Of a stretch of 64,000 bases of DNA, positions 15,256 through 60,435 are shown piece by piece. This DNA comes from Candidatus Heimdallarchaeum aukensis (GTDB lineage Archaea; Asgardarchaeota; Heimdallarchaeia; Heimdallarchaeales; Heimdallarchaeaceae), in the NCBI GenBank assembly GCA_021513695.1, contig CP084166.1, forward strand, positions 384,001-448,000, in the 5' to 3' direction. The first letter of the stretch is position 1. Every line of letters begins with the position of its first letter. Both the position numbers and the translations under genes were made by a program. Under the pieces are notes generated by a model. That model worked only from the letters and a program-made list of their open reading frames with translations. It made no database searches and was not told the origin of the DNA.

Positions 15256-15288
15256 TAATAGAATCAAAAATAATTTGAATGAAAGAAG

Positions 15289-16570
15289 GTGAAATTAGTG
15301 GTAAAAATAGCTCATATGTCTGATACTCATTTATCACATAGAAGAGTAAGAAATGTTAGAGATAGTTGGAAAGAAAGATATAGAGTAAGTTGGATAGAGA
15401 ATGACTTTTCATTAGCTTTTCAAAGAGCTTTAGATGCAGCTATTGAAACTAAATGTGATTTTCTAGTTCATTCAGGAGATTTGTTTGATGTTCCTGTAAA
15501 AAGAAATACAACTTCACCTTCTGAATATGCAAGAGCTATTGCAATAAGTGAAATAAGAAGATTTTTGGAAGCTACACATTTTAAAGTACCTATAATTATA
15601 ATTGATGGAAATCATGGAACTTATCTTTACAGGAATAATAGTACTATAGAATTCATAAAATCAGCTTTCCCTGAAAATGTGTTTATAGCCACAAATTATG
15701 ACCTTAAACGAGCAATAGTAAAAAATGAACCTTTGAAAGTAGAGTTTGAAGAGATTAACTTTTATCTGTTTCCTTATTTAGAATTCAAATCTATGGCTAA
15801 TTATGAAGAACTCTATGATGAATGGATAAGTAAATGCCAAGAGCCTGAAGACGGAAAAATTAATGTTGCAGTAGCTCACGGAATGTTTAGGAATTTGGAT
15901 TTGCATGAAAAATTATTCTCTTTTCCTTATGATTATGTAGCTTTAGGACACGATCACCAACAAAGAAAATATGCTCCAAACGCTTGGCAAGCAGGAAGTA
16001 CAGAAAAATATACCTTTGCTGAAAGAGGACAAGAAAAGTATTTTAGAAGTTATTATTGAGAAAGGAAAAAATTTACACATTAATCCAATAAAGGTTGTTA
16101 GCCAAAGAGAAATGAAACAATTCGAAGTAGAATTAAGTTCAGACATGAGTGCATTAACTGTAGAAGAAAAAATAAGAGAACTTGTAGCAAGTTATAGAAA
16201 GAACTTTGATGGAAACACAGCTGCGAGAATAAAAGTTAAGTTACAAGGAAAAACTTCTCTCTCCTACTGGTGGACAATAGAAGATCGTTTAGTAGAAATA
16301 CAGAAAAATGTTCTAACTGAAGAATATAACATCCTAGAATTTAGATGGGATGAAGAAGAGTTAAAGAAATCTATACCTCAAAGCCTAGCCAAAACACCAC
16401 AAATGGATCAATACCTAATTGAAGATCCAGTCAGGGATTTTGTAAATTATTTGAAAAACTTAGAAATAGATGATGAAGTAAAATTTGAACAATATGCAAA
16501 ACTAGGACCAGAAATAATTAAAGAGGTTTTTAGTGAAGGATTTATTTCTTCAAAGGAGGAGTTAGAATGA
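15289..16570 (+). pseudogene. mre11: Mre11 nuclease, copy 1, frameshifted
   Basis: Same sequence as the intact 427-aa copy, but caagaaaaaggtatttt is caagaaaagtatttt here (-2 bp). This splits the gene into the 15289-16059 and 15971-16570 ORFs. Phosphoesterase motifs HMSDTHL, GDLFD and GNHG are in the first part and GHDHQ is in the second. Confidence 0.65.
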
Positions 16571-18699: not shown

Positions 18700-18775
18700 T
18701 TCTTTTTTCATTATCTTTATCTTTTTTGAGAATAATATTTATATCTAAAAATGGAAATGTTCTCTAGGGTTTGAA

Positions 18776-20146
18776 ATGATACCTGGAACACTTAGACCTT
18801 TACCAAAAAGATTAGCTAAAGTAAAAACAGAAGCTGAAAGGCTTTTTAGAGCAGTGGACTATGATTACGAGACTATTAAAGAAATACTAAAATCTAGTAA
18901 AAATTTTGAATTTGAAGAAATAAGAAGACAATATATTAATTGTATAAATCATCACATAAGAATAGTTCCACTCGTAAAAGAAGCAGATAAATTGTTAGTT
19001 AAATATTCAAGAGATCCACTTCTAAAAGAAATGGTTTTCAAACTATTTGATAAGTTGGAAAAATATGAATACAGATTGAATGGTGATATTCAACGACTTG
19101 ATACTATTTTAATGTCGAAAAGAAAAGAATACATCAATAAAACAATTCCACTAGTGAAATCAGAAATAAGAAGCAAGTTATCTTTCTTAAGAGACCTAGA
19201 TTTTGAGCAATTACTCGCTGACAGTGAAAAATATTCTGCTATTATTTCAGGCATCGTAGATCGTGTAAATATATTAAAAGACGAGTATCAAAAATTAATC
19301 GAAAATGCTCTTGAAAGCGCAGTAGAAGCTTATAAAGAGTTAAAAGAAAAACTAGACGAACTTGAAGATGAACTAAAAGAGTATGTTCTTATTCTTGCTA
19401 CTTGTAAGATGGAATTGCTAATTAACGATTCAAAAACTTTGCTTGAAGAAGGAGTTAAAATATTCGAACGTTTTGAATTAGAACAAACAACTGAACTCAT
19501 AGAAGAAGCACAAGAGTACCTAGAAAAAGCAAAACCAACTCTAAAAGAGATGAATGAATTAAAGGTAGATATTCCTAAAAAAGCAATGAAAAAGAGCTTT
19601 GAAACAAAATTCCGAGAATTAAGAAATAAATTCGAAGAAAATAAATTTACTCTAGATGAATTGATAAACAACATCGAAACTAGAAATAGGTTACTATCGA
19701 CAAATATTGAAAGAATTGATGCATTAAAAGAGCTAGCAAAATCAATGTCGAGTGACATCAAAGAAACAGGAGAAATATTAAAAATAAAAAGAATGGGTAC
19801 ATTTAAACTATACTTGAAAGAAAATCTTATTCCACACATGGAGTTGCAAGAAAATGGTATAGTAAAAATACCAAAGGCAGAAGAACTCACGGCAACTTTT
19901 ATAGATGAAATAATCTTGACTCTTGAAGATGTAGATAATAAAAATATAGTTAAGGACTGGTTCAATGCTTTTAGAGCAACAAAAGTAGGTAAGTGGATAT
20001 ATGAAACTTCAATCAAAATTAAAAATAAAATAGTAGACATAACAAAGAAGATTGTAAAAAAAACTAAAAAATGGATCCAAGAAATGAAAGAAAAAAGAGA
20101 ACAGAAAAAATCGCAAGAAAATCAACAAAAAGAAGAGAAGAAATAG
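18776..20146 (+). CDS. coiled-coil protein of unknown function, copy 1
   Basis: 456 aa, highly alpha-helical and E/K-rich. Co-duplicated with mre11-rad50. Confidence 0.55.
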   Translation: MIPGTLRPLPKRLAKVKTEAERLFRAVDYDYETIKEILKSSKNFEFEEIRRQYINCINHHIRIVPLVKEADKLLVKYSRDPLLKEMVFKLFDKLEKYEYRLNGDIQRLDTILMSKRKEYINKTIPLVKSEIRSKLSFLRDLDFEQLLADSEKYSAIISGIVDRVNILKDEYQKLIENALESAVEAYKELKEKLDELEDELKEYVLILATCKMELLINDSKTLLEEGVKIFERFELEQTTELIEEAQEYLEKAKPTLKEMNELKVDIPKKAMKKSFETKFRELRNKFEENKFTLDELINNIETRNRLLSTNIERIDALKELAKSMSSDIKETGEILKIKRMGTFKLYLKENLIPHMELQENGIVKIPKAEELTATFIDEIILTLEDVDNKNIVKDWFNAFRATKVGKWIYETSIKIKNKIVDITKKIVKKTKKWIQEMKEKREQKKSQENQQKEEKK

Positions 20147-20311
20147 CAACATTATGTGATTTTGTGTTTTTGTGTAAAAATTCTCTATTTTTTTGTTAAA
20201 TTTATTACTATATAATAATGAATACAAAAAGAAATTAGGTTGAAATTATATCATTCATTGAATTTTTGAAAAAATTTTTGCCAAAAAAAATAAATATTTA
20301 GTTATATATAT

Positions 20312-20542
20312 GTGGTATGTATTAAAATGACTTCAGATTCATCTTGTTATTGTATTGTAAGAATAACTTGGCCTAAATGGATAGTTGCAACTGGACAGAT
20401 AGCTTTAGGTATTGGAATACTCTTATTGATCATTTTTTCGATCTTTTACACAAAGACAAGTTGGGAAAATTTTTCGCTATACGGAATCTACGTGGGAGCA
20501 GGTTTTTTGCTACTTGGGGCACTAATTAGCTATAGTTACTAA
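20312..20542 (+). CDS. small two-TM membrane protein, copy 1 with chimeric 3' end created by the duplication junction
   Basis: Identical to 25743-25979 up to ...LLGALI, then reads into the junction (SYSY*) instead of LSSNDW*. Confidence 0.4.
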   Translation: MVCIKMTSDSSCYCIVRITWPKWIVATGQIALGIGILLLIIFSIFYTKTSWENFSLYGIYVGAGFLLLGALISYSY

Positions 20543-20687
20543 CTCTTTACGCAATATTCCCATGCCTGTGAAGATACACAATGCACCAGTTTTAATTAAA
20601 GAAAATTTGTCTTTCTTTGAAAATCCTTATGATAGTTTGAAAATAAAAAAAGAAAAAAGGATATCTAAAGATATTCCTCTTCTTTAA
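20528..20687 (+). pseudogene. duplicated 3' fragment of herA (last ~53 codons)
   Basis: Exact copy of 15096-15255 (…TNSLRNIPMPVKIHNAPVLIKENLSFFENPYDSLKIKKEKRISKDIPLL*) with no 5' part. Confidence 0.6.
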
Positions 20688-20720
20688 TAATAGAATCAAA
20701 AATAATTTGAATGAAAGAAG

Positions 20721-22004
20721 GTGAAATTAGTGGTAAAAATAGCTCATATGTCTGATACTCATTTATCACATAGAAGAGTAAGAAATGTTAGAGATAGTTG
20801 GAAAGAAAGATATAGAGTAAGTTGGATAGAGAATGACTTTTCATTAGCTTTTCAAAGAGCTTTAGATGCAGCTATTGAAACTAAATGTGATTTTCTAGTT
20901 CATTCAGGAGATTTGTTTGATGTTCCTGTAAAAAGAAATACAACTTCACCTTCTGAATATGCAAGAGCTATTGCAATAAGTGAAATAAGAAGATTTTTGG
21001 AAGCTACACATTTTAAAGTACCTATAATTATAATTGATGGAAATCATGGAACTTATCTTTACAGGAATAATAGTACTATAGAATTCATAAAATCAGCTTT
21101 CCCTGAAAATGTGTTTATAGCCACAAATTATGACCTTAAACGAGCAATAGTAAAAAATGAACCTTTGAAAGTAGAGTTTGAAGAGATTAACTTTTATCTG
21201 TTTCCTTATTTAGAATTCAAATCTATGGCTAATTATGAAGAACTCTATGATGAATGGATAAGTAAATGCCAAGAGCCTGAAGACGGAAAAATTAATGTTG
21301 CAGTAGCTCACGGAATGTTTAGGAATTTGGATTTGCATGAAAAATTATTCTCTTTTCCTTATGATTATGTAGCTTTAGGACACGATCACCAACAAAGAAA
21401 ATATGCTCCAAACGCTTGGCAAGCAGGAAGTACAGAAAAATATACCTTTGCTGAAAGAGGACAAGAAAAAGGTATTTTAGAAGTTATTATTGAGAAAGGA
21501 AAAAATTTACACATTAATCCAATAAAGGTTGTTAGCCAAAGAGAAATGAAACAATTCGAAGTAGAATTAAGTTCAGACATGAGTGCATTAACTGTAGAAG
21601 AAAAAATAAGAGAACTTGTAGCAAGTTATAGAAAGAACTTTGATGGAAACACAGCTGCGAGAATAAAAGTTAAGTTACAAGGAAAAACTTCTCTCTCCTA
21701 CTGGTGGACAATAGAAGATCGTTTAGTAGAAATACAGAAAAATGTTCTAACTGAAGAATATAACATCCTAGAATTTAGATGGGATGAAGAAGAGTTAAAG
21801 AAATCTATACCTCAAAGCCTAGCCAAAACACCACAAATGGATCAATACCTAATTGAAGATCCAGTCAGGGATTTTGTAAATTATTTGAAAAACTTAGAAA
21901 TAGATGATGAAGTAAAATTTGAACAATATGCAAAACTAGGACCAGAAATAATTAAAGAGGTTTTTAGTGAAGGATTTATTTCTTCAAAGGAGGAGTTAGA
22001 ATGA
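20721..22004 (+). CDS. mre11: Mre11 nuclease (intact, 427 aa)
   Basis: Calcineurin-like phosphoesterase motifs I-V present (D-x-H, GDLFD, GNHG, VAVAHG and GHDHQ), followed by the Mre11 capping/C-terminal region. Confidence 0.85.
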   Translation: MKLVVKIAHMSDTHLSHRRVRNVRDSWKERYRVSWIENDFSLAFQRALDAAIETKCDFLVHSGDLFDVPVKRNTTSPSEYARAIAISEIRRFLEATHFKVPIIIIDGNHGTYLYRNNSTIEFIKSAFPENVFIATNYDLKRAIVKNEPLKVEFEEINFYLFPYLEFKSMANYEELYDEWISKCQEPEDGKINVAVAHGMFRNLDLHEKLFSFPYDYVALGHDHQQRKYAPNAWQAGSTEKYTFAERGQEKGILEVIIEKGKNLHINPIKVVSQREMKQFEVELSSDMSALTVEEKIRELVASYRKNFDGNTAARIKVKLQGKTSLSYWWTIEDRLVEIQKNVLTEEYNILEFRWDEEELKKSIPQSLAKTPQMDQYLIEDPVRDFVNYLKNLEIDDEVKFEQYAKLGPEIIKEVFSEGFISSKEELE

Positions 22005-24130
22005 AAATTCTTTGGATACACATGGAGAATTTTAAATGCTACCGCAATGAGAGGATTCCAGAAACAGGTATCCTTCCAAAAGGATTGATTTTTGTAGAGG
22101 GAGAGAATTCGGTAGGAAAAACTTCTTTGTTTGATGCAATATATTACGCTCTTTTTTACGAACCTACAAAGGACAAAGCCATTTTAGGTACAAAAGATAT
22201 GCTAGTAAAAAGAGGAGAAAAAGAGACTATCGTAGAAGTTGCTTTTGAAATAATGAATAAATACTTTGTAGTACAAAAGCAACATGGAATATCAACTCCT
22301 CTAAAAGTAGTTTTACTTCAAATTGATAGAGAGATGGCTGAAAAAGGAGAATTAAAAAATCCCATTAAAATAGCAGAAGGACTAGAGGATGTAAACAAGA
22401 AATTGTTTGAACTATTAAATATCACAAGCGAAAGCGTGTTGAGCACTCTAATAGTAAATCAAGGAGAAGTGCAAAAACTAGCAGAAGCTAAAGGAGCAGA
22501 ACTTAGAGATATAATTTACAAACTTTTTCATTTAGATATAAGAGAAAAGTTGAAACGTGTGATTAATAGAAAAATGGAGATTTTAGATGAAGAATGGGAA
22601 AAATACAAAATTGAGCGCACAACAGAGAATATTCTTGAAGAAATTAAAGAAATAGAGATAGAGAAAGAAACGAAAGAGAAAGAGTTAGTAAAAGCAAAAA
22701 ATGAACTGGAAAAAATAGAAGAGAAAATCTCTCAATATCCTAAACATGAAGATATTCAATCAATAAGCAATATTTTAACTCAAATACAGCAAACCAAAGA
22801 AACTATTTCTAAGCAAGAAAGAATAATTAAACAAAAATCTGAAACTTTAGAAATCAAGGAACTAACACAAGAAGAAATAAAGGATAAAATCTTAGAAATA
22901 GAGAAGATTATTCAGAAAACTAACAATAACATAGAAAATTTAAGAAACAAAAGAGATAAAGTCCAGAAAAAGTTGCATAGTCTCCAAAGAGATCTTGCTG
23001 AAATAAAAGAAAAAATCAAGAAACTAGAAAGTCATGAAGTAGGACATGAAGAAGATTTTACTTGCGAATTATGCGAACAAACGATGCCCTACTCGAAATT
23101 TAAGGAATTAGTAGAGAGTAAAAAACAATCAATTACAAATATTGAATTAGGGATTAAGAAAAGAACTGCAGAAAAAAGAGAAGTAGAGAAACAAATTGAA
23201 AAAGAAAGCAATTATATTAATAAGCTAAAAGAACAAATTTTTTCACTTAATAATGTCAAAGATAGGCTAGATAATCTAGAGAATAACAAGAAAGAATTGG
23301 ATAAAAAACAAAATAATTTAATAACACAACTTAAAAAATTCAAAGTCCAGACAGTTGATCAGCTTTCAAAGAAATATAATGTCGAAAACTTTGAGGAATT
23401 CTTTTCAATTATAAGTCAACTGAAATCTGATAAAGCTAGTCTAAATGCATCAATAAGTCATCTAAATAAAACTATTGAAAAACTAAAACAAAGGAAAAAT
23501 CAATTAGAAAAAGAAATAGACAAAAATAAGGAAAAGGAAGAGAAACAAGAGAGTATTCTTCAAGAACAAGCTGCACTAAAAGATGTAGAAGGTGTAGTTT
23601 CAAGTTTTATAGCTGAGGAGCTAATCTCCAATAGATTGCTTGCAGGAATACAGCAGACAACTAATCCTAATATAAACTTGTTTACGAGAGGAAAATACTC
23701 AGAGATATATCTAGAAGCAACTACAAAGAAAACTTTAAGGTTAAGCGTTTTAGACAAAGAAGAAGAATTCGTAAAAAATCAAGAGTTCCTTTCAGGAGGA
23801 GATAAAGCAGCTATAGGACTAGGATTGAGATTAGGTATAAGCGAATTACTAAAACAAATTAGACCATTCAAAGATTCTCCTCATAATCCTCCAAGGATGG
23901 ATATAATGATACTTGATGAGCCTTTGGGTTCACTTGATAGTGAAAGAAGGAAAAAAGTTCTAGAAGGATTGTTGATACAGAAGAAATTCAGTCAAATATT
24001 TCTGATTACACATACAAATGTTAGAGAAGAACTTCGAGCTCCTTCAATTCGAGTAAGTAGAACAGAAAAAGGTAGCTCTACAGCCTATTACCCTGCTCCA
24101 AGTAAAATAGAGTTAGAATCTGAAGAATGA
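22001..24130 (+). CDS. rad50: Rad50 ABC-type ATPase, copy 2
   Basis: Identical to copy 1 except for a one-Asp deletion (HLDIREK versus HLDDIREK). Confidence 0.8.
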   Translation: MKILWIHMENFKCYRNERIPETGILPKGLIFVEGENSVGKTSLFDAIYYALFYEPTKDKAILGTKDMLVKRGEKETIVEVAFEIMNKYFVVQKQHGISTPLKVVLLQIDREMAEKGELKNPIKIAEGLEDVNKKLFELLNITSESVLSTLIVNQGEVQKLAEAKGAELRDIIYKLFHLDIREKLKRVINRKMEILDEEWEKYKIERTTENILEEIKEIEIEKETKEKELVKAKNELEKIEEKISQYPKHEDIQSISNILTQIQQTKETISKQERIIKQKSETLEIKELTQEEIKDKILEIEKIIQKTNNNIENLRNKRDKVQKKLHSLQRDLAEIKEKIKKLESHEVGHEEDFTCELCEQTMPYSKFKELVESKKQSITNIELGIKKRTAEKREVEKQIEKESNYINKLKEQIFSLNNVKDRLDNLENNKKELDKKQNNLITQLKKFKVQTVDQLSKKYNVENFEEFFSIISQLKSDKASLNASISHLNKTIEKLKQRKNQLEKEIDKNKEKEEKQESILQEQAALKDVEGVVSSFIAEELISNRLLAGIQQTTNPNINLFTRGKYSEIYLEATTKKTLRLSVLDKEEEFVKNQEFLSGGDKAAIGLGLRLGISELLKQIRPFKDSPHNPPRMDIMILDEPLGSLDSERRKKVLEGLLIQKKFSQIFLITHTNVREELRAPSIRVSRTEKGSSTAYYPAPSKIELESEE

Positions 24131-24206
24131 TTCTTTTTTCATTATCTTTATCTTTTTTGAGAATAATATTTATATCTAAAAATGGAAATGTTCTCTAGGG
24201 TTTGAA

Positions 24207-25577
24207 ATGATACCTGGAACACTTAGACCTTTACCAAAAAGATTAGCTAAAGTAAAAACAGAAGCTGAAAGGCTTTTTAGAGCAGTGGACTATGATTACG
24301 AGACTATTAAAGAAATACTAAAATCTAGTAAAAATTTTGAATTTGAAGAAATAAGAAGACAATATATTAATTGTATAAATCATCACATAAGAATAGTTCC
24401 ACTCGTAAAAGAAGCAGATAAATTGTTAGTTAAATATTCAAGAGATCCACTTCTAAAAGAAATGGTTTTCAAACTATTTGATAAGTTGGAAAAATATGAA
24501 TACAGATTGAATGGTGATATTCAACGACTTGATACTATTTTAATGTCGAAAAGAAAAGAATACATCAATAAAACAATTCCACTAGTGAAATCAGAAATAA
24601 GAAGCAAGTTATCTTTCTTAAGAGACCTAGATTTTGAGCAATTACTCGCTGACAGTGAAAAATATTCTGCTATTATTTCAGGCATCGTAGATCGTGTAAA
24701 TATATTAAAAGACGAGTATCAAAAATTAATCGAAAATGCTCTTGAAAGCGCAGTAGAAGCTTATAAAGAGTTAAAAGAAAAACTAGACGAACTTGAAGAT
24801 GAACTAAAAGAGTATGTTCTTATTCTTGCTACTTGTAAGATGGAATTGCTAATTAACGATTCAAAAACTTTGCTTGAAGAAGGAGTTAAAATATTCGAAC
24901 GTTTTGAATTAGAACAAACAACTGAACTCATAGAAGAAGCACAAGAGTACCTAGAAAAAGCAAAACCAACTCTAAAAGAGATGAATGAATTAAAGGTAGA
25001 TATTCCTAAAAAAGCAATGAAAAAGAGCTTTGAAACAAAATTCCGAGAATTAAGAAATAAATTCGAAGAAAATAAATTTACTCTAGATGAATTGATAAAC
25101 AACATCGAAACTAGAAATAGGTTACTATCGACAAATATTGAAAGAATTGATGCATTAAAAGAGCTAGCAAAATCAATGTCGAGTGACATCAAAGAAACAG
25201 GAGAAATATTAAAAATAAAAAGAATGGGTACATTTAAACTATACTTGAAAGAAAATCTTATTCCACACATGGAGTTGCAAGAAAATGGTATAGTAAAAAT
25301 ACCAAAGGCAGAAGAACTCACGGCAACTTTTATAGATGAAATAATCTTGACTCTTGAAGATGTAGATAATAAAAATATAGTTAAGGACTGGTTCAATGCT
25401 TTTAGAGCAACAAAAGTAGGTAAGTGGATATATGAAACTTCAATCAAAATTAAAAATAAAATAGTAGACATAACAAAGAAGATTGTAAAAAAAACTAAAA
25501 AATGGATCCAAGAAATGAAAGAAAAAAGAGAACAGAAAAAATCGCAAGAAAATCAACAAAAAGAAGAGAAGAAATAG
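24207..25577 (+). CDS. coiled-coil protein of unknown function, copy 2
   Basis: Identical to 18776-20146. Confidence 0.55.
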   Translation: MIPGTLRPLPKRLAKVKTEAERLFRAVDYDYETIKEILKSSKNFEFEEIRRQYINCINHHIRIVPLVKEADKLLVKYSRDPLLKEMVFKLFDKLEKYEYRLNGDIQRLDTILMSKRKEYINKTIPLVKSEIRSKLSFLRDLDFEQLLADSEKYSAIISGIVDRVNILKDEYQKLIENALESAVEAYKELKEKLDELEDELKEYVLILATCKMELLINDSKTLLEEGVKIFERFELEQTTELIEEAQEYLEKAKPTLKEMNELKVDIPKKAMKKSFETKFRELRNKFEENKFTLDELINNIETRNRLLSTNIERIDALKELAKSMSSDIKETGEILKIKRMGTFKLYLKENLIPHMELQENGIVKIPKAEELTATFIDEIILTLEDVDNKNIVKDWFNAFRATKVGKWIYETSIKIKNKIVDITKKIVKKTKKWIQEMKEKREQKKSQENQQKEEKK

Positions 25578-25742
25578 CAACATTATGTGATTTTGTGTTT
25601 TTGTGTAAAAATTCTCTATTTTTTTGTTAAATTTATTACTATATAATAATGAATACAAAAAGAAATTAGGTTGAAATTATATCATTCATTGAATTTTTGA
25701 AAAAATTTTTGCCAAAAAAAATAAATATTTAGTTATATATAT

Positions 25743-25979
25743 GTGGTATGTATTAAAATGACTTCAGATTCATCTTGTTATTGTATTGTAAGAATAACTT
25801 GGCCTAAATGGATAGTTGCAACTGGACAGATAGCTTTAGGTATTGGAATACTCTTATTGATCATTTTTTCGATCTTTTACACAAAGACAAGTTGGGAAAA
25901 TTTTTCGCTATACGGAATCTACGTGGGAGCAGGTTTTTTGCTACTTGGGGCACTAATTCTATCAAGTAATGACTGGTAG
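25743..25979 (+). CDS. small two-TM membrane protein (native copy)
   Basis: 78 aa with two hydrophobic helices. Its 3' end lies beyond the duplication boundary. Confidence 0.45.
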   Translation: MVCIKMTSDSSCYCIVRITWPKWIVATGQIALGIGILLLIIFSIFYTKTSWENFSLYGIYVGAGFLLLGALILSSNDW

Positions 25980-29130: not shown

Positions 29131-29931
29131 ATGGATTTAGTAGAAATTAATTTCATAGTAGACGATAGGAATGAAATTATAACTGTAGAATCATCAGTTG
29201 AAGAATTAGATTTATCGAATAGAAACATCAAGGACATCAATTTAGCAGGGGTAGAAAGACTTCCTTTTCTCAAAAAGATTGATCTTTCAAACAATAGTAT
29301 TGAAAAAATATATGAAAAACCTTTGAAATATTGTCCAAGCTTACAAATAGTTAACTTGTCAAATAATGAATTAGATGAAATAGATCTATCTTTCTGTTAT
29401 TATTTACCTGACTTAAGAGTTTTAGATTTATCAAAAAACAAATTAAGAAAAGTAAACCTTTATCACCTTCTTTTGTGCAACTTTCTAAATACATTAGATT
29501 TACAAGAAAATAATTTCGAAGAAATTGATTTAACTCCACTTATTTCTTTGCCTTCTCTTAATCATCTTTCACTCTCTGAAAAAGAAAAGAAAGTGATGAA
29601 GTTAGAAGGAATGCTATCTTCTTATTTAAAATCCAACTCTCCTATAAAAACCCAACTAGTTGAACTAAAAAAGCTATATACACAGAATAATAGGATGCTG
29701 CTAATTAAACAAATAGTCAAAACCTACAAAAAAATAAGGAAATCTAAAATAGCTCAGTTTCTTTCTTTTGAAAGTGAAATTGAGTTTGAGAATTGGTTAC
29801 TTACTGAATATGGAGATATAAAAGCTTTTGAAATGACTGAAGAGTATCTTATTATTCACAAAGAAGCAGTAAATGAGTTAGACGAGATGCTCTCAAAATT
29901 AGAGAAATCGTTTGAATCTCTACGTAGATGA
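29131..29931 (+). CDS. leucine-rich-repeat protein carrying the same C-terminal module
   Basis: Five or six LxxLxLxxNxL repeats ([50 protein letters not shown] and [13 protein letters not shown]). GGAG SD 7 nt upstream and a 9-bp gap to the preceding gene. C-terminal ~70 aa align with the module of the other two family members. Confidence 0.7.
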
Positions 29932-31051: not shown

Positions 31052-31483
31052 TTGAGAAAAATGGCTACACTTGAAGCAATGAAAATAATTCCTGACAGAA
31101 CTGTTGAAGAGTTAGAAAAAATTGATGTTGAAATTGGTAAGATTTTAACTAAAATACTTAATGAAGATGGAAATAATTTAGATTTTATAGAAAAACAAAT
31201 TTATGCTATTCTTCTAATCTCAAAAGCTGGATTACCAATGTATTCAAACGTAAATGCTGATTTTAAAGTAAATGAACTTTTGCTGTCAGGATTGCTAGGG
31301 GCTTTACAAATAGTAGGAAATTCAATTTTCAGAGACGATACAGTTATATGTTCGATAAATTATAAAGGTTTCACGATTTTATTTGAAGAAATGTCGTTTG
31401 GAAGTTTGGTTTTAATTGTTTCAGAAAATAATCAATTAACAAGAAAAATAATTAAGATAATTAAAGAAACTTTAACTGAATAA
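31052..31483 (+). CDS. Roadblock/LC7 (MglB-like) domain protein (tentative)
   Basis: About 140 aa. The segment AILLISKAGLPMYSNV...LLGALQIVG...GSLVLIVSE matches the alpha-beta-beta-alpha-beta pattern of Roadblock/LC7 domains. Assignment is by pattern only. Confidence 0.35.
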   Translation: MRKMATLEAMKIIPDRTVEELEKIDVEIGKILTKILNEDGNNLDFIEKQIYAILLISKAGLPMYSNVNADFKVNELLLSGLLGALQIVGNSIFRDDTVICSINYKGFTILFEEMSFGSLVLIVSENNQLTRKIIKIIKETLTE

Positions 31484-31487
31484 TGTC

Positions 31488-31580
31488 TGCTTCGATAATT
31501 CAATTAATCTGATAACATTATTGGGGTTATTTCTTACAAGGATAACATCTGCACTTTCTATTGCAACATCAGTTCCTGCC
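31488..31580 (+). pseudogene. about 93-bp remnant of a copB-like P-type ATPase 3' region
   Basis: About 93% identical to 32492-32583 inside copB (first 31 bp identical). Lies opposite in strand to copB and directly after the stop of the 31052-31483 gene. Confidence 0.5.
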
Positions 31581-32250: not shown

Positions 32251-34464
32251 TTACGATTTATCTTTTTGTTCTTTCTTTGCAGATTTTTTATTGTTTTTTG
32301 GAGATATATCATATTTTCTTAAAGTTTGGGAATTGATAGCGACGATTACTGTACTCAAAGACATCAAAATTGCGCCTATAGCAGGGTTTATTATTACACC
32401 TACACTTGCTAGAACTCCTGCAGCTAAAGGAATAGCGATTATATTATATCCTGCTGCCCACCATAAATTTTGAATCATTTTCTTGTATGTTTGCTTCGAT
32501 AATTCAATTAATCTGATAACATCATTTGGGTTATTTCTTACAAGGATAATATCTGCGCTTTCTATTGCAACATCAGTTCCTGCCCCTACTGCAATTCCTA
32601 CATCAGCAGTAACTAATGCAGGAGCATCATTAATTCCGTCTCCGACCATAGCGACTTTGTATCCTTCCTCTTTTAATTTTGTAATTTTATCAGCTTTCTC
32701 ATGTGGAAGAACTTCTGCAAAATAGTCATCCATTTCTAATTCTTTTGCTACCCATTTTGCTACTTCTTCTGCATCGCCTGTAAGCATGTATGTTCTTATT
32801 CCTAAAGATTTTAACTTCTCAATAGCAATTCTTGAATCTTCTCTTATTTTATCTGCTAGAGCAAATGCGCCAGCAAGTTTGTCATCAATTATTGTAAAGA
32901 TTACAGTTTTTCCTTGTTGTTGCACTTGTTTTATCTTCTCATCTTCTATTTCTATTTTCAACTCGTCAAGTAAGTTTGGGCTACCAACATAGACTGTTTT
33001 TCCATTTATTTTACCTTTTACACCTTTACCTGGCATTACAGTAAAATCAATAGTTGAAGGGATCTTTATTTTCTTCTCTTTTGCATAATCTACTATAGCT
33101 TTTGCAATTATATGCTCAGAGTTAATCTCTAACGCTGCAGTTAACTCCAATAACTCTTCTTCAGGAATGTACGAGATAACATCAGTTACTCCAAAGTTTC
33201 CTTCAGTCAAAGTTCCTGTTTTATCAAAAACTATAGCATCTATGTTTCGAACGTTTTCAAATCCAGTTCTGTCTCTTATAAGTACTCCACTTTTAGCAGT
33301 AATAGAAGTAGATAAAGCAACAACTAGAGGAATAGCTAAACCTAACGCATGGGGGCAAGCAATAACTAATACTGTTACAGCTCTCTCTAAAGCGAAATCA
33401 GGAAAACCAAGAAGGAACCATGTAGTATAAGTTATGATTCCTGCGATAAGTGCTACATAAAATAATAATGCTGCTGCACGATTAGCTAAATCTTGTGTTC
33501 TTGATTTACTCATTTGTGCTTTTCTTACTAAGTCTATTACTTGAGCAAGATAATTTTCTTCACCAGTTTTAGTTATTTTTACATGTAAAATTCCTTCTGA
33601 ATTTATAGATCCACCAATAACCATGTCATCCACAGTTTTGGATACAGGCATTGATTCTCCAGTCAAAAAAGCTTCATTTACATATGAAGAACCGTCTATA
33701 ACTACACCATCTGAAGGAATTTTTTCTCCAGGTCTAACAAGTGTAACATCATTGATTTTAAGCTCGGAAACGGAGACATCAATGATTTCTCCATCCTTGA
33801 TTAAGTGAGCAGTAGTAGGCATAATCTTTACTAATTCCTCTAATGCTCTCGAAGCTCCCATAATACTTTTTGCTTCCACCCAGTGACCTAGTAGCATAAC
33901 ATCGATCAATGTAGCAAGCTCCCAAAAGAAATCTACTCCTTCAATGAAAAACACAGTAGCAGCCGAATAAAAGAAAGCTACAGATATTGCCATTGCAATA
34001 AGTGTCATCATACCAGGAAGTTTTTTCTTGATTTCGTTAAATAAGCCTTTTAGAAATGGCCAACCACCATAAAAATAGATAAGTGATGAGATTGCAAGAA
34101 CTAATTCTCTTTGAAAATTAAAGGTAATCTCAAAGTTTAACCATAGCTGAATTGTTTCAGATAGAAGTAAAACTGGAATGGTTAAAATTAAAGAGACAAA
34201 AAATCTTTTCTTGAAGTCAGAAATGTGAGCAGAATGGTCATGAGATTTGTGGTCCTGATGATCTCCATGTTTCATTTTAGTTCCTGTAGATCCATGATCT
34301 TTGTGTTCTTGATGATTTTGATGCGTAGTATGTGCTTCTGCAGAAACATGACTTTTATGATCCTTATGATCTTTATGTTTCATATGAGATTCTGAAGAAT
34401 CATGTTTTTTGTGATTTTGGTTATCATGATCTTGATTTTTATTTCCTTTGTTCATTTTTTTCAC
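32251..34464 (-). CDS. copB: copper-translocating P1B-type ATPase, His-rich N-terminus, CPH motif
   Basis: N-terminal His-rich metal-binding stretch (HKDHKDHKSH...), CPH in TM6 (ACPHALGLA), phosphorylation site DKTGTLT and hinge GDGINDAP. Confidence 0.9.
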   Translation of the reverse strand: MKKMNKGNKNQDHDNQNHKKHDSSESHMKHKDHKDHKSHVSAEAHTTHQNHQEHKDHGSTGTKMKHGDHQDHKSHDHSAHISDFKKRFFVSLILTIPVLLLSETIQLWLNFEITFNFQRELVLAISSLIYFYGGWPFLKGLFNEIKKKLPGMMTLIAMAISVAFFYSAATVFFIEGVDFFWELATLIDVMLLGHWVEAKSIMGASRALEELVKIMPTTAHLIKDGEIIDVSVSELKINDVTLVRPGEKIPSDGVVIDGSSYVNEAFLTGESMPVSKTVDDMVIGGSINSEGILHVKITKTGEENYLAQVIDLVRKAQMSKSRTQDLANRAAALLFYVALIAGIITYTTWFLLGFPDFALERAVTVLVIACPHALGLAIPLVVALSTSITAKSGVLIRDRTGFENVRNIDAIVFDKTGTLTEGNFGVTDVISYIPEEELLELTAALEINSEHIIAKAIVDYAKEKKIKIPSTIDFTVMPGKGVKGKINGKTVYVGSPNLLDELKIEIEDEKIKQVQQQGKTVIFTIIDDKLAGAFALADKIREDSRIAIEKLKSLGIRTYMLTGDAEEVAKWVAKELEMDDYFAEVLPHEKADKITKLKEEGYKVAMVGDGINDAPALVTADVGIAVGAGTDVAIESADIILVRNNPNDVIRLIELSKQTYKKMIQNLWWAAGYNIIAIPLAAGVLASVGVIINPAIGAILMSLSTVIVAINSQTLRKYDISPKNNKKSAKKEQKDKS

Positions 34465-34655: not shown

Positions 34656-37600
34656 TTAGTTCATGCTTTCTTTTAGATAAACCCAAGTATAACCCATTTG
34701 TTTTTGGACTATTTCTTCTGGTTTTCCTTCTGAGATTATGTACCCTCCTAGCTCTCCTCCTTCTAGACCTAAATCTATAACATAGTCTGCCTGTTTAATT
34801 AAATTCATTTCGTGATCAATTAGAACCACACTGTGTCCTTTATTTGCTAATCTATGAAGAATTTCAATAAGTTTTTCTAAATCAAAAAAGTGTAATCCTT
34901 GAGAAGGTTCATCTAGGATGTAAATACTATTTCCATAGGTTCTTTTAGATAGTTCTCTTACAATCTTTAATCTTTCAGCTTCTCCACCACTTATTGTTGT
35001 TGTTGGTTGTCCCATTTTCAAATAACCTAAACCTGCTTCAACAGCTAATTTTAATGGAGCACTTATTTTTTCTAGATCCCTAAATAACTCATATGCTTCT
35101 TCAATAGTCATCTCAAGAATATCAGAGATAGATTTTTGTTTGTACTTTACAGCTAGAACTTTTTTGTTATACCTTTTCCCCTTACAAATAGGACAAGTTA
35201 ACCATACATCAGATAAGAAAAGTAATTCTACCTTCTTTTGCCCTAATCCTTTACATTCTGGGCATTGTCCTTTTTTTACATTAAAACTAAAATGAGCAGA
35301 GCTCATTCCTCTGTTTCTTGATTCAGGTAGTTCAGCATAAAACTTTCTTATCTCGTCAAAAACTCCAAGATAAGTTGCTGGAGTTGAACGAACAGATTTA
35401 CTCATTGCAGATTGATCTACAGCAATAACTTTTTTGATATCTTCAAAACCTTTAATTTCTTTATGTTTTCCTGCTTCTATCTTCTTTTTAGAAATTTTTT
35501 TCTCTAAAGCTTTTTGTAAAGTATCTATAACCAAAGAAGATTTACCCGCACCTGATACTCCAGAAACAGCAGTAATAATTCCCTTTCCAAACTTTGCTGT
35601 AATATTTTTAAGATTATTTTCTTGTGCTCCTACTAAAGTTATATTTTCTGAAGTTTTTCTTCTTTTAGTAGGCGTTTTTATTTTTCTCTTGCCATAAATA
35701 TAGCTACCAGTAAGAGAAGATTCGCTTTTAAGAACCTCATTGGTTGAACCAAAGTTAATTATTTCTCCTCCTTCTTCTCCTCCCCTTGGTCCTAACTCAA
35801 TTATATAATCAGACTCTTTAATTATTGTATCGTCATGTTCTACTACTATTACGTGATTGCCATTTTCTTTTAATTTCTTCATGGTGTCTAATAGCCTGTT
35901 AATGTCTCTTGGATGTAAACCAATAGTGGGTTCGTCTAAGCAATAAGTTACCCCTATTAATCCACTTCCTATTTGAGAAGCTAAGCGTATTCTTTGTGCT
36001 TCTCCATTGGATAATGTACTTGCTCTTCGATCAAGAGTTAAATATTCTAACCCTACATCTACTAAATATTGAGCTCTTTTCTTTAATTCGGAAAGGATTC
36101 GCTCTGCTATTTTCGACCTTCTTTTATCTAATATTATATTATTCAGAAATACAAGAAAGTCTTTAACTGAATATTTTGTCAAATCTGTAATTGATTTGTT
36201 ATTAATTGTAATAGCTAAAACTTCTGGTTTAAGTTTTTCTCCCTTACAGTCGGGGCAAAGATACTCTGAATAATATTGGTTCATTTTTTCTTTATATTTA
36301 AGTGACCAAGTCGAATCTGTTTCAGATTTCATCCAATCATCCCAACGAGGAATTAATCCTTCCCAAGGTTTTTCTCTAATATACTCTGATACAGATTTAC
36401 GACTTTCTTGACGATAAACTATTTCTACTATTTCGCCATCTGAACCATAAAATAAAGCATGTAGTTGTTGAGGAGTAAAATCTTTTAGAGGAGTAGAGAG
36501 AGTGAAACCAAAGTGTTTTCCTACTGATTCTAACATACTTCGTCTCCAAGAGTTAGGATTACTCATTCTTTGTGCAGTATAAGGACCAATTGCTCCTTCA
36601 ATTATTGATTTATTCCAATCTGTAACTATCTTTCTAATATCAAATTTTCTGATCATTCCCAATCCTGTACAAGTTGGGCAAGCTCCTGAATAGTGATTAA
36701 AACTAAATAACCTTGGGTGAATCTCTTCTGGGACTTCAATTCCATGCTCTAAACATTCAGCATTGAATGAATACCTTTTTCCTTTTTTATCTGTAGAATA
36801 GACTTCTATTCTCCCTTTTCCAAGTTCTCTAGCTATTTCTAATGAATCAACAAATCTCGTATCTTCAACTTTTGATAAATCTATTCTATCAATCACAACT
36901 GAAAGTGTTTTAACATTATCAACACTAAACTCTTCATCTAAATGTAATAGTTTCTCATTTAGTAAAATCCTTGTATATCCTTCTTTCTTTAGTTCTTTTA
37001 CAATTTTAGATATATCTACTTGCTCTCCATTTAATACTGAAGCAGCAAGGTATATTTTCTTATCTTTGAACTCTTTTCTAATCAATTTTGCTATTTCTGT
37101 TTCTGTCCTTTGTTTTAATTCAATAGAACATTTAGGACAATGAGGAATACCTACTTTTGCAAAAAGAAGACGAAGATAATCATAAATTTCAGTAGTTGTG
37201 GCAACAGTGGAACGAGGATTATGTGAAATTGAATGTTGATCTATTGCAATTGAAGGAGTTAAGCCTACTATTTCTTCTACTTCTGTCCTTTCTGCCCGAT
37301 TTAGAAACTGTCTAGCATAACTGCTCAAACTTTCAATAAATCTTCTTTGCCCTTCAGCAAATAGTGTATCAATAACTAAACTACTTTTTCCACTACCAGA
37401 AACTCCAGTAACAACAACAAGATTATTTTTTGGAATAGTAAGATCAAGATTTTTTAGATTGTTCTTTTTTGCTCCTTTTACATAAAGAAAACTGCTTGGA
37501 TCTAATTCTTTATCTGATGTGGAAATAGAATTTTTACTTACTGTTTGCTCTTTTTCTAATTCTCTCTTTTCTCCTTCTAAAACCTTTTTTAGAGCTTGAC

Positions 37601-40445
37601 CTGTATATGACTCTTTAATTTTCACAATTTCTTCGGGAGTACCAAAACCAACTAAATATCCTCCCTTTTCTTCTCCTCCTTCAGGACCTAAATCAATGAT
37701 ATAATCTGCAGTCTTAATTACATCTAACTGATGCTCTATTACAAGAACGGTGTTTCCTTTATCTACTAATTCTTGTAAAACTTTGATTAGTTTCTTGATA
37801 TCTTCAAAACTTAAACCTGTAGTTGGTTCATCTAAGATATACAGAGTCTTACCAGTAGCTCTTTTAGCTAATTCTCTACTCAATTTTATTCTTTGCGCTT
37901 CTCCTCCAGAGAGAGTAGTAGAAGACTGACCTAATTTTATATAGTCTAAACCTACAGCTTCAAGAGTTTTGAGTATTCTAACAATTTTAGGTTGGTTCTC
38001 AAAAACATTTAATGCTTCACTTACAGTCAAGTTAAGTATATCTGCGATAGAATATCCTTTGTATTTAACTTTAAGTGTTTCATCATCATATCTGTTTCCT
38101 TTACAAATTTCACACTCTACCTCAACATCAGGTAAAAGAGACATCTCTATAGTGTTAAAACCTTTTCCTTGACAAGCTTCACATCTACCAGGGCTGTTAT
38201 TAAAACTAAATCTAGTTTTTGTATATCCTCTCAGTTTAGCAGTAGGAAGAGAAGCAAATAAGTCTCTAATAGGGTCAAGCATCTTTGTGTAAGTTGCAGG
38301 ATTTGAACGAGTAGTTCTACCTATAGGTGATTGGTCAATAACAACTACTTTATCGATATTCTCGACTCCTTTCAAAGTCTTGAATTTTCCTGCTTTCTGT
38401 TTTCCATGATGTAACTTATTTACTAAAGCGGGATAAAGGGTATCAGAAACTAAACTACTTTTACCGCTTCCAGAAACTCCAGTTACGCAAACAAATGTTC
38501 CTAAAGGTATCTTTACATCTATATTCTTTAGGTTATTGTGCTGAGCTCCTTTTAATTCAAGAAAAATATTGCTCTTTCTTCTCTTTTTAGGAACTGAAAT
38601 TGAGTCAAGGTTTAGTAAATATCTAGCTGTAAAAGAGCGTTTAGCGTCTTTTTCACTTATATCTCTAGGGTTTTTAGCAAAAAGTAATTCTCCGCCTAAA
38701 CTACCTGCTCGAGGTCCTAAATCTATTAAAACATCTGCACTCTGTAAAGTGTCTTCGTCATGTTCAACAACAATAACTGTATTCCCACCATCACGTAGAG
38801 TCTTTAAAGAAGAAAGAAGCTTTTCATTATCTCTATTTGCTAAACCTATGCTAGGTTCATCTAGAACATAATTAACTCCTTGAAGTTTAGCTCCTATTTG
38901 TGTTGCTAATCTAGTTCTTTGAGCTTCTCCGCCACTTAAATCAACAGCACTTCTATCTAAAGTGAGATAATGAAGACCCACCTCGATTAAAAAATATAAT
39001 CTGCTTATGATTTCCCTAAGAAGGGGTTTTGCTATCTTTTCTTCCTCTGGAGATAACTTTAAACTGTTAAAGAAATTGTAACATTCTTCTATAGACATTT
39101 GATTAAGTTCAGCAATATTTTTTCCATGGAAAAGTACAGATAGACTTTCATTCTTTAACCTTAGCCCTTTACAATCAGGACAAGTTTGAAGTTCCATATA
39201 TTGTTCTAAACGTTCTTTCATGCTTTTAGAAGAAGTTCTGTAATAACCCTCCATTGTTGCAGGAATAAAACCTTTCCATTTTACATCTGAAGTTCCCCGG
39301 GCTTTCCAGACACTATCTCTTGCTCCCCATTTCCAATTAATGGTATACTCTTTACTTCCAGTACCGTACATCAAGATTTGTTTGTGTTCTTCAGGCAAGT
39401 CCTTCCAAGGAATAGAAATATCAATACCTAACTGTTTAGCAATCTGTGCAATAGAATTTTTGCTCAATCCAGTATAAGTAAAGTGATCTCCACTTTTCGT
39501 CTGTAAAGCTATTGCATGTTCTAATAAAGGATTATCAGGATTAGTAACAAGTTTGTCGGGAACAATTTGAGGAAGCTTACCTAAACCTTTACATCTTGGA
39601 CAAGCTCCAACAGAAGAATTATAAGAAAAATCTCGAGGGTGAAATTCATTAACAGATAAACCACATTGAGGACAAACAAGCTTATTAGAAAAAATCTTTT
39701 TTTCCTTTTCTCCAATAATCTTTACTTTCCCATCAGCGAGATCTAAGCAAAGATCTACACTATCACGGATACTAGCTTCATTTTTCCTCAAACATTTATT
39801 TCTATCTACAACTATTTCAATATCATGGGCGACATATCTTTCCAATTTTGGAAACTTTTCATCCAGATTAATCTCTTCTCCATCAATGATTAAACGAGTA
39901 AAACCTTCTTCTTTCCATTTTGCTAGTTCTTTCCTGTACTCACCTTTTCTTTTTTTAAACATTGGTGCAACAATCTTGACTTTTTGTCCTTCAAAAGAAG
40001 CGAATATTTGATCTATTATCTGATCAGAAGGTTGTGCATCTATTTTAATATTACATATTGGACAATGAGGAACACCTACTCTAGCAAAAAGAACACGCAA
40101 GTAATCATATATTTCTGTTAAAGTTCCAACAGTACTTCGGGGATTCCTAGAAATGGTTTTCTGGTCAATAGAAATGGTAGGTCTTAAACCTTCAATATGT
40201 TCAACATCTGGACGATCAAAGTTGCCAATAAATTGTCTAGCATAAGCAGATAGAGTTTCCATATATCTTCTCTGAGCTTCTGAAAAAATAGTATTGAAAG
40301 CTAGTGAACTCTTCCCACTACCTGAAACGCCAGAAATTACCACTAGTTTATCATGTGGAATAGAAATAGTTATGTCTTTCAAGTTATTTTCTTTAGCTCT
40401 AATAATTTTAATACTGTCAGTACTAGAAGTCATATGATTATTCAC
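34656..40445 (-). CDS. uvrA: tandem-fused double UvrA (two complete UvrA units in one 1929-aa polypeptide)
   Basis: Four ABC Walker-A sites (GVSGSGKSSLAF, GVSGSGKSSLVSD, GVSGSGKSSLVID and GVSGAGKSSLVID), four LSGGE signatures and repeated Zn modules (CPIC, CPQC, CPRC / CPKC, CPTC and so on). Unit 2 starts around FLYVKGAKKNNLKNL. Confidence 0.85.
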   Translation of the reverse strand: MNNHMTSSTDSIKIIRAKENNLKDITISIPHDKLVVISGVSGSGKSSLAFNTIFSEAQRRYMETLSAYARQFIGNFDRPDVEHIEGLRPTISIDQKTISRNPRSTVGTLTEIYDYLRVLFARVGVPHCPICNIKIDAQPSDQIIDQIFASFEGQKVKIVAPMFKKRKGEYRKELAKWKEEGFTRLIIDGEEINLDEKFPKLERYVAHDIEIVVDRNKCLRKNEASIRDSVDLCLDLADGKVKIIGEKEKKIFSNKLVCPQCGLSVNEFHPRDFSYNSSVGACPRCKGLGKLPQIVPDKLVTNPDNPLLEHAIALQTKSGDHFTYTGLSKNSIAQIAKQLGIDISIPWKDLPEEHKQILMYGTGSKEYTINWKWGARDSVWKARGTSDVKWKGFIPATMEGYYRTSSKSMKERLEQYMELQTCPDCKGLRLKNESLSVLFHGKNIAELNQMSIEECYNFFNSLKLSPEEEKIAKPLLREIISRLYFLIEVGLHYLTLDRSAVDLSGGEAQRTRLATQIGAKLQGVNYVLDEPSIGLANRDNEKLLSSLKTLRDGGNTVIVVEHDEDTLQSADVLIDLGPRAGSLGGELLFAKNPRDISEKDAKRSFTARYLLNLDSISVPKKRRKSNIFLELKGAQHNNLKNIDVKIPLGTFVCVTGVSGSGKSSLVSDTLYPALVNKLHHGKQKAGKFKTLKGVENIDKVVVIDQSPIGRTTRSNPATYTKMLDPIRDLFASLPTAKLRGYTKTRFSFNNSPGRCEACQGKGFNTIEMSLLPDVEVECEICKGNRYDDETLKVKYKGYSIADILNLTVSEALNVFENQPKIVRILKTLEAVGLDYIKLGQSSTTLSGGEAQRIKLSRELAKRATGKTLYILDEPTTGLSFEDIKKLIKVLQELVDKGNTVLVIEHQLDVIKTADYIIDLGPEGGEEKGGYLVGFGTPEEIVKIKESYTGQALKKVLEGEKRELEKEQTVSKNSISTSDKELDPSSFLYVKGAKKNNLKNLDLTIPKNNLVVVTGVSGSGKSSLVIDTLFAEGQRRFIESLSSYARQFLNRAERTEVEEIVGLTPSIAIDQHSISHNPRSTVATTTEIYDYLRLLFAKVGIPHCPKCSIELKQRTETEIAKLIRKEFKDKKIYLAASVLNGEQVDISKIVKELKKEGYTRILLNEKLLHLDEEFSVDNVKTLSVVIDRIDLSKVEDTRFVDSLEIARELGKGRIEVYSTDKKGKRYSFNAECLEHGIEVPEEIHPRLFSFNHYSGACPTCTGLGMIRKFDIRKIVTDWNKSIIEGAIGPYTAQRMSNPNSWRRSMLESVGKHFGFTLSTPLKDFTPQQLHALFYGSDGEIVEIVYRQESRKSVSEYIREKPWEGLIPRWDDWMKSETDSTWSLKYKEKMNQYYSEYLCPDCKGEKLKPEVLAITINNKSITDLTKYSVKDFLVFLNNIILDKRRSKIAERILSELKKRAQYLVDVGLEYLTLDRRASTLSNGEAQRIRLASQIGSGLIGVTYCLDEPTIGLHPRDINRLLDTMKKLKENGNHVIVVEHDDTIIKESDYIIELGPRGGEEGGEIINFGSTNEVLKSESSLTGSYIYGKRKIKTPTKRRKTSENITLVGAQENNLKNITAKFGKGIITAVSGVSGAGKSSLVIDTLQKALEKKISKKKIEAGKHKEIKGFEDIKKVIAVDQSAMSKSVRSTPATYLGVFDEIRKFYAELPESRNRGMSSAHFSFNVKKGQCPECKGLGQKKVELLFLSDVWLTCPICKGKRYNKKVLAVKYKQKSISDILEMTIEEAYELFRDLEKISAPLKLAVEAGLGYLKMGQPTTTISGGEAERLKIVRELSKRTYGNSIYILDEPSQGLHFFDLEKLIEILHRLANKGHSVVLIDHEMNLIKQADYVIDLGLEGGELGGYIISEGKPEEIVQKQMGYTWVYLKESMN

Positions 40446-50067: not shown

Positions 50068-50350
50068 TTTTCTAAATATTTTAGGTTGAAAAATATTATA
50101 TAAATATTATCAAATGATTTTTGGATAGTTTTTTATTTAAAGTTTAAAATAAAGCTTGAATAGATTTTAGAATAAAAAGAAAAATTTTGCCAATTATATC
50201 TTTTTTGTAAGATTTAATCTAAAAAAGATAAATTCAAATTATAAGAAATAAGACAGATAATATTAGGCTAATTATCAGTTTTTCTATTAAATTCAAAATA
50301 GTGTTCTAGAAATCTAAAAAAATAGAATGAGGAAAACAGTAAAAAGCTAT

Positions 50351-50458
50351 AGTACTTCCGCAATAAGTTGACTGATTTCTATAGGTTAAAATTATAGGAG
50401 TTCATACTATCATTGGTGTGTTCTCAATTCATACTTTTTGAGATAATTCGGAAGTACT
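50351..50458 (+). mobile_element. MITE-like 108-bp element with 10-11-bp terminal inverted repeats, copy A
   Basis: agtacttccg......cggaagtact. 106/108 identical to the reverse complement of 60436-60543. Lies 47 bp upstream of the 50505 start codon. Flanks aaagcta / aagcta form a possible short target-site duplication. Confidence 0.6.
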
Positions 50459-50504
50459 AAAGCTAATAACAATTTTTTTAAGTATAATTATTAAATAAAA
50501 CACA

Positions 50505-60411: not shown

Positions 60412-60435
60412 ATTTATATTTTCCTATAAGAAAAT

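Follow-up and report, generated by a model that had tools for sequence, protein, structure and literature searches.

The window analysed here is a 64,000-nucleotide stretch of the genome of Candidatus Heimdallarchaeum aukensis (Asgardarchaeota; contig CP084166.1 of GenBank assembly GCA_021513695.1, positions 384,001 to 448,000 of the forward strand), and all coordinates are counted from its first letter. Its minus strand carries an uninterrupted open reading frame (ORF) at 34656-40445, with 1929 codons, a GTG start and not a single internal stop, which encodes two UvrA units in one chain. A sequence-only reading of the window, made without database searches, had described this frame as one ORF of 1929 amino acids (aa) with two complete UvrA units. 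The unbroken frame and the two units were borne out by our analysis, but the length is probably 1925 aa. Translation most likely begins with the ATG at 40433 (the fifth codon), since the identical GenBank protein UJG41177.1 and its orthologs begin with MTSSTDSIK; the GTG-initiated ORF of 1929 aa would then be the mechanical maximum of the frame. UJG41177.1 is annotated as 'excinuclease ABC subunit UvrA' of Candidatus Heimdallarchaeum aukensis and is encoded on a 3.08-Mb contig.

Using phmmer, Escherichia coli UvrA aligned to the protein twice and end to end (residues 6-951 with E. coli 2-939, residues 984-1922 with E. coli 5-938), and both halves align over E. coli residues 118-256, which form the UvrB-binding domain. 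The halves cover positions 3-942 and 5-941 of the 943 positions of the UvrA profile. Both exceed the class I equivalog cut-offs of the NCBIfam models NF001503 (N half 1309 bits, C half 1160 bits, cut-off 1147) and TIGR00630 (N half 1248 bits, C half 1116 bits, cut-off 730), which confirms the head-to-tail arrangement of two complete units. Pfam detected UvrA_inter (PF17760) and UvrA_DNA-bind (PF17755) twice each, so that the UvrB-binding and the insertion domain are retained in either half. Class I UvrA is normally a homodimer of ~940-aa subunits. Here, one 1925-aa chain carries two complete and non-identical class I units, which have diverged to 42% identity over 947 aa and are connected by a linker of 25-32 aa across the Heimdallarchaeaceae family, with a conserved DP(S/A)x(Y/F) motif at its end. 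From this layout, the term covalently linked pseudo-dimer, proposed in the sequence-only reading, can reasonably be inferred for the fusion protein.

The catalytic set is retained in both units and comprises all Walker A lysines, the Asp-Glu pair in each of the four Walker B motifs (DEP) and the H-loop histidines. All four predicted Walker A sites were found, three of them as GVSGSGKS and one, in the C half, as GVSGAGKS. The claim of four LSGGE signatures has to be corrected, because only the two of the N half have this sequence and the C half reads LSNGE and ISGGE. The duplicated zinc modules were identified completely: there are six, three per unit, with eleven CxxC pairs and one CxxH pair at aligned positions. 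The latter is CLEH, the second ligand pair of zinc module 1 (Zn1) in the C half, and a CxxH pair in Zn1 also occurs in E. coli and clostridial single UvrAs. The C unit (944 aa) was also modelled with AlphaFold2 from an alignment of 62 sequences, and the model reached a mean predicted local distance difference test score (pLDDT) of 85.5 and a predicted template modelling score (pTM) of 0.75. Its top structural match was the UvrA of the UvrA-UvrB crystal structure 3uwx_A, with a template modelling (TM) score of 0.84 over 946 columns, compared with ~0.7 for Deinococcus radiodurans UvrA2 and 0.62 for Ecm16, both of class II.

The fusion is present in related genomes as well. The complete chromosome of Ca. 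H. endolithica PR6 (CP084167.1, 3.33 Mb, circularized) encodes a copy of equal length with 95% identity and zero gaps, another full-length copy was found in a metagenome-assembled genome (MAG; MHA1868172.1), and about 18 further orthologs with 61-80% identity and 1915-1921 aa have an unchanged two-copy layout. A genome scan for close relatives returned PR6 only, the remaining matches being unrelated ABC proteins. The ratio of nonsynonymous to synonymous substitutions (dN/dS, Nei-Gojobori) between the aukensis and PR6 copies was 0.072 over the whole gene (0.062 in the N half, 0.087 in the C half), and we therefore conclude that both halves are kept by purifying selection. The dS values of the halves are unequal between the two Heimdallarchaeum species (34659-40433; 0.47 for the N half and 0.19 for the C half), which could be due to recombination or to a constraint on codon usage.

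These comparisons also decide whether two adjacent uvrA genes were fused by an assembly or sequencing artefact. Such an artefact would not be out of place in a window that holds a suspicious, perfect 5.4-kb tandem duplication whose copies differ by single-base indels only, and the gene does appear split in one assembly: on a 7.7-kb Heimdallarchaeaceae MAG contig, a frameshift that follows residue 1000 interrupts a 99%-identical gene, and the second ORF restarts at residue 1036 with loss of the C-unit Walker A1. However, this break lies inside the C unit and away from the junction, and it is probably a sequencing error and no natural two-gene form. Frame and length are identical in two circularized genomes and many MAGs, and the alignment is gapless at a dN/dS of 0.07. 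A frameshift or stop hidden between the halves is thus excluded by the second circularized genome, the MAG copy and the ~18 orthologs, and the earlier statement that no recent artefactual duplication is involved holds across independent genomes. Of all rival explanations, the artefact is the only one that we consider refuted, with a practically negligible residual chance.

The two units are not equivalent in their ATP sites. We compared 19 Heimdallarchaeaceae orthologs with 72 single UvrAs and used E. coli UvrA numbering for residue positions such as G489, S644 and R730. At positions that are at least 97% invariant in the single proteins, 47 family-fixed departures were found in the C unit with the consensus kept in the N unit, versus 15 in the reverse direction. 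This pattern fits specialisation and not decay. The ATPase motifs of the N unit are canonical. According to published structures, the distal ATP site is composed of K647 in the Walker A motif of nucleotide-binding domain II (NBD-II) and S490 of signature I, and the proximal site of K39 and S831. Given this composition, the C-unit changes G489N, S644A and E889D (Table 1) all belong to one composite site, namely the distal site of the C unit. Tight nucleotide binding has been published for the distal site, which has also been implicated in damage discrimination. The retention of conserved single-UvrA positions is lower in the C unit for both signature II (0.82 in the N unit vs 0.63) and the ATP-II region (0.94 vs 0.79), which makes signature II, with 63% retention, the most diverged core domain of the C unit. 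R730, which is replaced in the C unit, is one of four arginines altered in a published DNA-binding mutant. The C-unit signatures LSNGE and ISGGE and the second Walker A motif GAGKS are non-consensus, but they do not appear to be inactivating.

A second difference concerns the contact to UvrB. The double exchange R216A/E222A is a published mutant of the UvrB interaction surface (PMC3025350), and the corresponding residues are present in the C unit and missing from the N unit. Among the 19 C units, 18 have the R216 equivalent and all have the E222 equivalent, whereas the 19 N units have S, I or L at position 216 (R in 1/19) and N, T, S or D at position 222. Overall, the UvrB-binding domain retains 0.93 of the conserved positions in the N unit and 0.57 in the C unit. 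Because the C-unit signature II is also strongly diverged, the docking site formed by the N-unit UvrB-binding domain and the C-unit signature II is altered on both faces. The other docking site, composed of the C-unit UvrB-binding domain and the N-unit signature II, looks closer to canonical, with the R/E pair and a canonical signature II, although its UvrB-binding domain has itself diverged strongly. The departures of the N and the C unit would therefore be complementary, and they are fixed over the 19 orthologs. This asymmetry seems to be the only new element of the protein.

Table 1. Positions of the uvrA-uvrA fusion gene and its features in the window (R216, E222 and exchange names such as G489N in E. 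coli UvrA numbering).
Feature	Position	Strand	Residues	Remarks
uvrA-uvrA fusion gene	34656-40433	(-)	1-1925	1925 codons + stop, ATG start; identical to GenBank UJG41177.1
4 extra codons of the mechanical ORF, GTG AAT AAT CAT	40434-40445	(-)		5' of the ATG; probably untranslated
N unit	37581-40433	(-)	1-951	complete class I UvrA with canonical ATPase motifs
N-unit UvrB-binding domain	39663-40070	(-)	122-257	
N-unit R216 equivalent	39771-39773	(-)	S221	
N-unit E222 equivalent	39753-39755	(-)	D227	
N-unit insertion (DNA-binding) domain	39204-39572	(-)	288-410	
Linker	37485-37580	(-)	952-983 (32 aa)	LEGEKRELEKEQTVSKNSISTSDKELDPSSFL; hydrophilic, variable
C unit	34659-37484	(-)	984-1925	complete class I UvrA fold, diverged further than N unit
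C-unit UvrB-binding domain	36744-37145	(-)	1097-1230	
C-unit R216 equivalent	36855-36857	(-)	R1193	
C-unit E222 equivalent	36837-36839	(-)	E1199	
C-unit insertion (DNA-binding) domain	36279-36650	(-)	1262-1385	dN/dS 0.013 vs PR6 genome
C-unit signature I, LSNGE (G489N)	36000-36014	(-)		N in 19/19 orthologs; distal ATP site
C-unit NBD-II Walker A, GVSGAGKS (S644A)	35538-35561	(-)		A in 19/19 orthologs; distal ATP site
C-unit R730 equivalent	35292-35294	(-)	H1714	H in 19/19 orthologs
C-unit signature II, ISGGE followed by A-E for A-Q (Q836E)	34980-34994	(-)		19/19 orthologs
C-unit NBD-II H-loop, D-H for E-H (E889D)	34812-34817	(-)		19/19 orthologs; distal ATP site

Taken together, we favour, with a probability of roughly 0.6, an intramolecular pseudo-heterodimeric class I UvrA that acts as a damage sensor in excision repair, has specialised units and maybe loads one UvrB canonically. 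The fusion would represent the UvrA of a bacterial-type UvrABC excision repair system in Candidatus Heimdallarchaeum, and Asgard archaea have indeed been reported to carry the bacterial UvrABC system (2026 review, PMC12993045). Its two units would fold back on each other and form the equivalent of a UvrA2 dimer whose four ATP sites share a single polypeptide; they could specialise because partners in one chain can never exchange. The N unit would then supply the consensus ATPase and DNA-contact residues without R216 and E222, and the C unit would combine R216/E222 with a non-consensus distal ATP site, a diverged signature II and R730H. Such a hard-wired asymmetric sensor would load one UvrB in the canonical way. 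This is plausible because the ordinary UvrA dimer is already functionally asymmetric on a lesion, with recognition and support roles of the insertion domains and with A2B1 and A2B2 complexes (PMC11985968). A stricter form, in which a natural single-chain heterodimer divides the work, loads exactly one UvrB on a predetermined side and possibly uses the modified distal ATP site of the C unit for regulation, can be put forward only tentatively.

Several observations weigh against this interpretation. Conservation of the N-unit UvrB-binding domain is strong, at 75% among family members and a dN/dS of 0.05. Two positions beyond the lost R216, the domain offers a conserved Arg (IRDSV), so it may bind UvrB in a shifted geometry, or another partner. 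The C-unit domain does not have the RKG motif and H198, both of which are invariant in single UvrAs, and its competence for UvrB is likewise uncertain. Furthermore, the loss of R216/E222 from the N unit is restricted to the Heimdallarchaeaceae, except that chlamydial N units are also without E222; in most other double UvrAs the pair is intact in either half, and fusion per se therefore needs no one-sided UvrB binding. Any effect of G489N and S644A on ATP turnover is putative, and the pairing of N and C unit within one chain is an assumption, as the structural model covers the C unit only. Finally, in a second Heimdallarchaeaceae genome the flanks of the ortholog were searched up to 10 kb away, and they contained neither uvrB nor uvrC.

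The most serious competitor is a fused dimer that works symmetrically. Fusion would then merely ensure dimerisation and 1:1 expression, both units would bind UvrB and hydrolyse ATP, and the unit-specific changes would be drift or co-evolution with the organism's own UvrB. The intact catalytic residues at all four sites agree with it, as do the two Pfam-recognised UvrB-binding domains under purifying selection, the R216/E222 pair in both halves of most other double-UvrA clades and the Arg close to the lost R216. We nevertheless consider it rather unlikely, since the departures affect positions that are at least 97% invariant in the 72 single proteins, are fixed in 19/19 orthologs and are concentrated at a single composite ATP site and at a single UvrB docking site, of which both faces are affected. 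Such clustering is not expected from drift.

Two other explanations concern the function and the stoichiometry of the protein. A UvrA-like paralog outside excision repair, for example in DNA-drug tolerance as for class II UvrA2/Ecm16, would be in line with the lack of repair partners nearby: neither uvrB nor uvrC was detected among the window ORFs scanned with Pfam (all ORFs of 600-740 aa were covered and some smaller ones left out), as already stated for the adjacent genes in the sequence-only reading. Fused class II proteins of ~1640 aa also exist. However, uvrA is commonly unlinked to uvrB and uvrC in bacterial genomes, both halves score above the UvrA equivalog cut-offs end to end, and the C-unit model is closer to class I than to UvrA2 or Ecm16. 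Class II membership was rejected on the basis of the UvrB-binding domain in both halves, and a role outside repair is improbable. Slightly more improbable still is an assembly of two fused chains that pair intermolecularly or by domain swapping and thus contain four UvrA equivalents. The available data leave the quaternary state free and the linkers are short (20-46 aa in more than 100 double UvrAs), but the linker length has changed little across widely different clades, and an obligate N:C pair is the simplest account of the complementary specialisation, even if an N:C pair formed between two chains would fit, too.

Comparison with known systems places the novelty outside the fusion itself. 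Like canonical class I UvrA (E. coli, Geobacillus stearothermophilus, Thermotoga maritima, Clostridium thermocellum, Mycobacterium tuberculosis), each half has two ABC modules, three zinc modules and the UvrB-binding and insertion domains. With single UvrAs of Clostridia and Coriobacteriia, the N half shares 53-56% identity, slightly more than with the N units of double UvrAs outside the family (46-52%). Among solved structures, the whole protein scores 1042 bits to 2r6f, with the best stretch in the N half (residues 5-961). Unlike in the canonical homodimer, both units reside on one chain, are 42% identical and have unit-specific fixed changes at otherwise invariant positions. The same head-to-tail layout of two units is known from the long UvrA of Chlamydiae and Planctomycetes (NF001885/PRK00635, 1809 model positions), with Parachlamydia acanthamoebae UV-7 (1927 aa) and Calycomorphotria hydatis (2345 aa) as examples. 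The Heimdallarchaeum fusion reaches 1389 bits with this model and thus not the cut-off of 3054 bits, and its identity to the doubles of Chlamydiae and Planctomycetes is only 42-45%. The C-unit states L32P, F42L/I, loss of G160 and S516T are common to the Heimdallarchaeaceae and bacterial doubles, whereas the LSNGE/GAGKS/DH distal site is specific to the Heimdallarchaeaceae, except for LSNGE in two chlamydia-like C units. A second archaeal clade of double UvrAs (other Heimdallarchaeota/Asgard, Bathyarchaeia; ~1960 aa, 47-49% identity) has its odd motifs in the N unit (Walker B2 EEP for DEP, H-loop 1 SEHD) and canonical ATP sites in the C unit; which unit became non-consensus differs between lineages. 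Class II UvrA (D. radiodurans UvrA2, Ecm16) has the ABC-ATPase core and zinc modules in common with the fusion, but not the UvrB-binding domain.

The best 120 matches to the full protein were all two-copy UvrAs, with Heimdallarchaeaceae, other Heimdallarchaeota/Asgard, Bathyarchaeia, Gemmataceae, Calycomorphotria (Planctomycetes), Parachlamydia and other Chlamydiae as named sources. In all double UvrAs compared, the C unit is further from E. coli UvrA than the N unit, and about 30 planctomycete doubles bear an extra C-terminal tail of ~350 aa. When representatives of 50%-identity clusters were searched, almost all of the best 150 had 1.3-2.3 kaa, which suggests on the order of at least 100 distinct double-UvrA clusters, in a ranking that is biased to doubles because the scores of two matched copies add up. 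The fusion architecture is already common in public data and curated resources and hence not new, so it is less novel than the sequence-only reading implied; among the papers covered by a full-text literature search, none analyses a tandem-fused UvrA, and the supplementary tables of the Heimdallarchaeum genome paper have zero Uvr entries. Two other layouts came up alongside. In a separate fused class of ~1640 aa, two class II units are joined that both lack the UvrB-binding domain, corresponding to E. coli residues ~118-262 (one is named from Bacteroidales), and ~1250-aa planctomycete 'UvrA' proteins (Planctomicrobium, Thalassoglobus) have one full unit followed by the first ~258 residues of a second.

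To trace the origin of the fusions, single-length UvrAs and both units of the doubles (123 sequences, 921 columns) were placed in a neighbour-joining tree with 100 bootstraps. The N units of the two archaeal clades group at 95%, which suggests that these clades share a fused ancestor. Support is 76% for a group of bacterial-type N units, 73% for one of bacterial-type C units and less than 50% for the backbone. With such a backbone, one origin followed by cross-domain transfer and repeated fusion are both compatible. The shared C-unit states L32P, F42L/I, G160 loss and S516T give a weak hint of common ancestry of the C units across clades. A single origin of all fusions is unsupported by the tree, in which only clades within groups and the archaeal N-unit clade are supported.

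UvrA is normally a symmetric homodimer with four ATP sites, but the repair intermediate after it holds one UvrB, on the damaged strand, and is asymmetric; the way in which the symmetry is lost is under debate (PMC11985968). In a single-chain UvrA, each of the four ATP sites and the two UvrB-binding domains can be mutated separately, which is impossible in a homodimer, and the Heimdallarchaeaceae fusions already carry such separate changes in a coherent pattern. If true, UvrA would have come to divide its work between two halves in the closest archaeal relatives of eukaryotes, much as the MutS homodimer gave way to MSH2-MSH6, and it would offer a ready-made tool for studying how the symmetric UvrA2 handles an asymmetric lesion. 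The value would thus lie in the predicted asymmetry, the fusion itself being ordinary in databases. Besides, a bacterial-type repair protein with an unusual architecture that is common to Asgard archaea and Planctomycetes/Chlamydiae bears on gene flow between the domains.

The neighbours of the fusion gene encode an H+-pyrophosphatase, a leucine-rich repeat (LRR) protein, TrmO, a longin-like ORF, a P-type ATPase, a DinB-family protein and a DNA methylase, and a HerA/Mre11/Rad50-like cluster lies further upstream. Part of this cluster is contained in the head-to-tail tandem duplication of 5.43 kb (15096-20527 and 20528-25958; 0 mismatches, 5 single-base gaps), which includes an Mre11-like phosphoesterase, a Rad50-like ATPase (709-710 aa) and a 456-aa protein of unknown function, with the HerA-like gene (13375-15255) directly upstream. 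The Mre11 ORF is broken in copy 1 (15289-16059, 15971-16570) and whole in copy 2 (20721-22004). The duplication looks like an assembly artefact, or like a very recent duplication with homopolymer indel errors.

Further repeats were detected on the other side of the fusion gene and close to it. An inverted repeat of 110 nt (50347-50459 and 60435-60547, 97-98% identical) flanks ~10 kb, and this interval, which could be an invertible or mobile segment, contains two NosD/beta-helix paralogs with TSP3 repeats (55064-57118 and 57303-59288, ~75% nucleotide identity). A direct repeat of 98 nt with 95% identity occurs at 31483-31580, from the last base of the 143-aa longin-like ORF into the spacer, and at 32487-32584, within the P-type ATPase ORF. 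The longin match of the 143-aa ORF (31052-31483) is below threshold (Fuz_longin_1, 20 bits vs a cut-off of 26). The LRR protein is encoded nearby at 29131-29931, and both gene types are typical of eukaryote-like Asgard genes.

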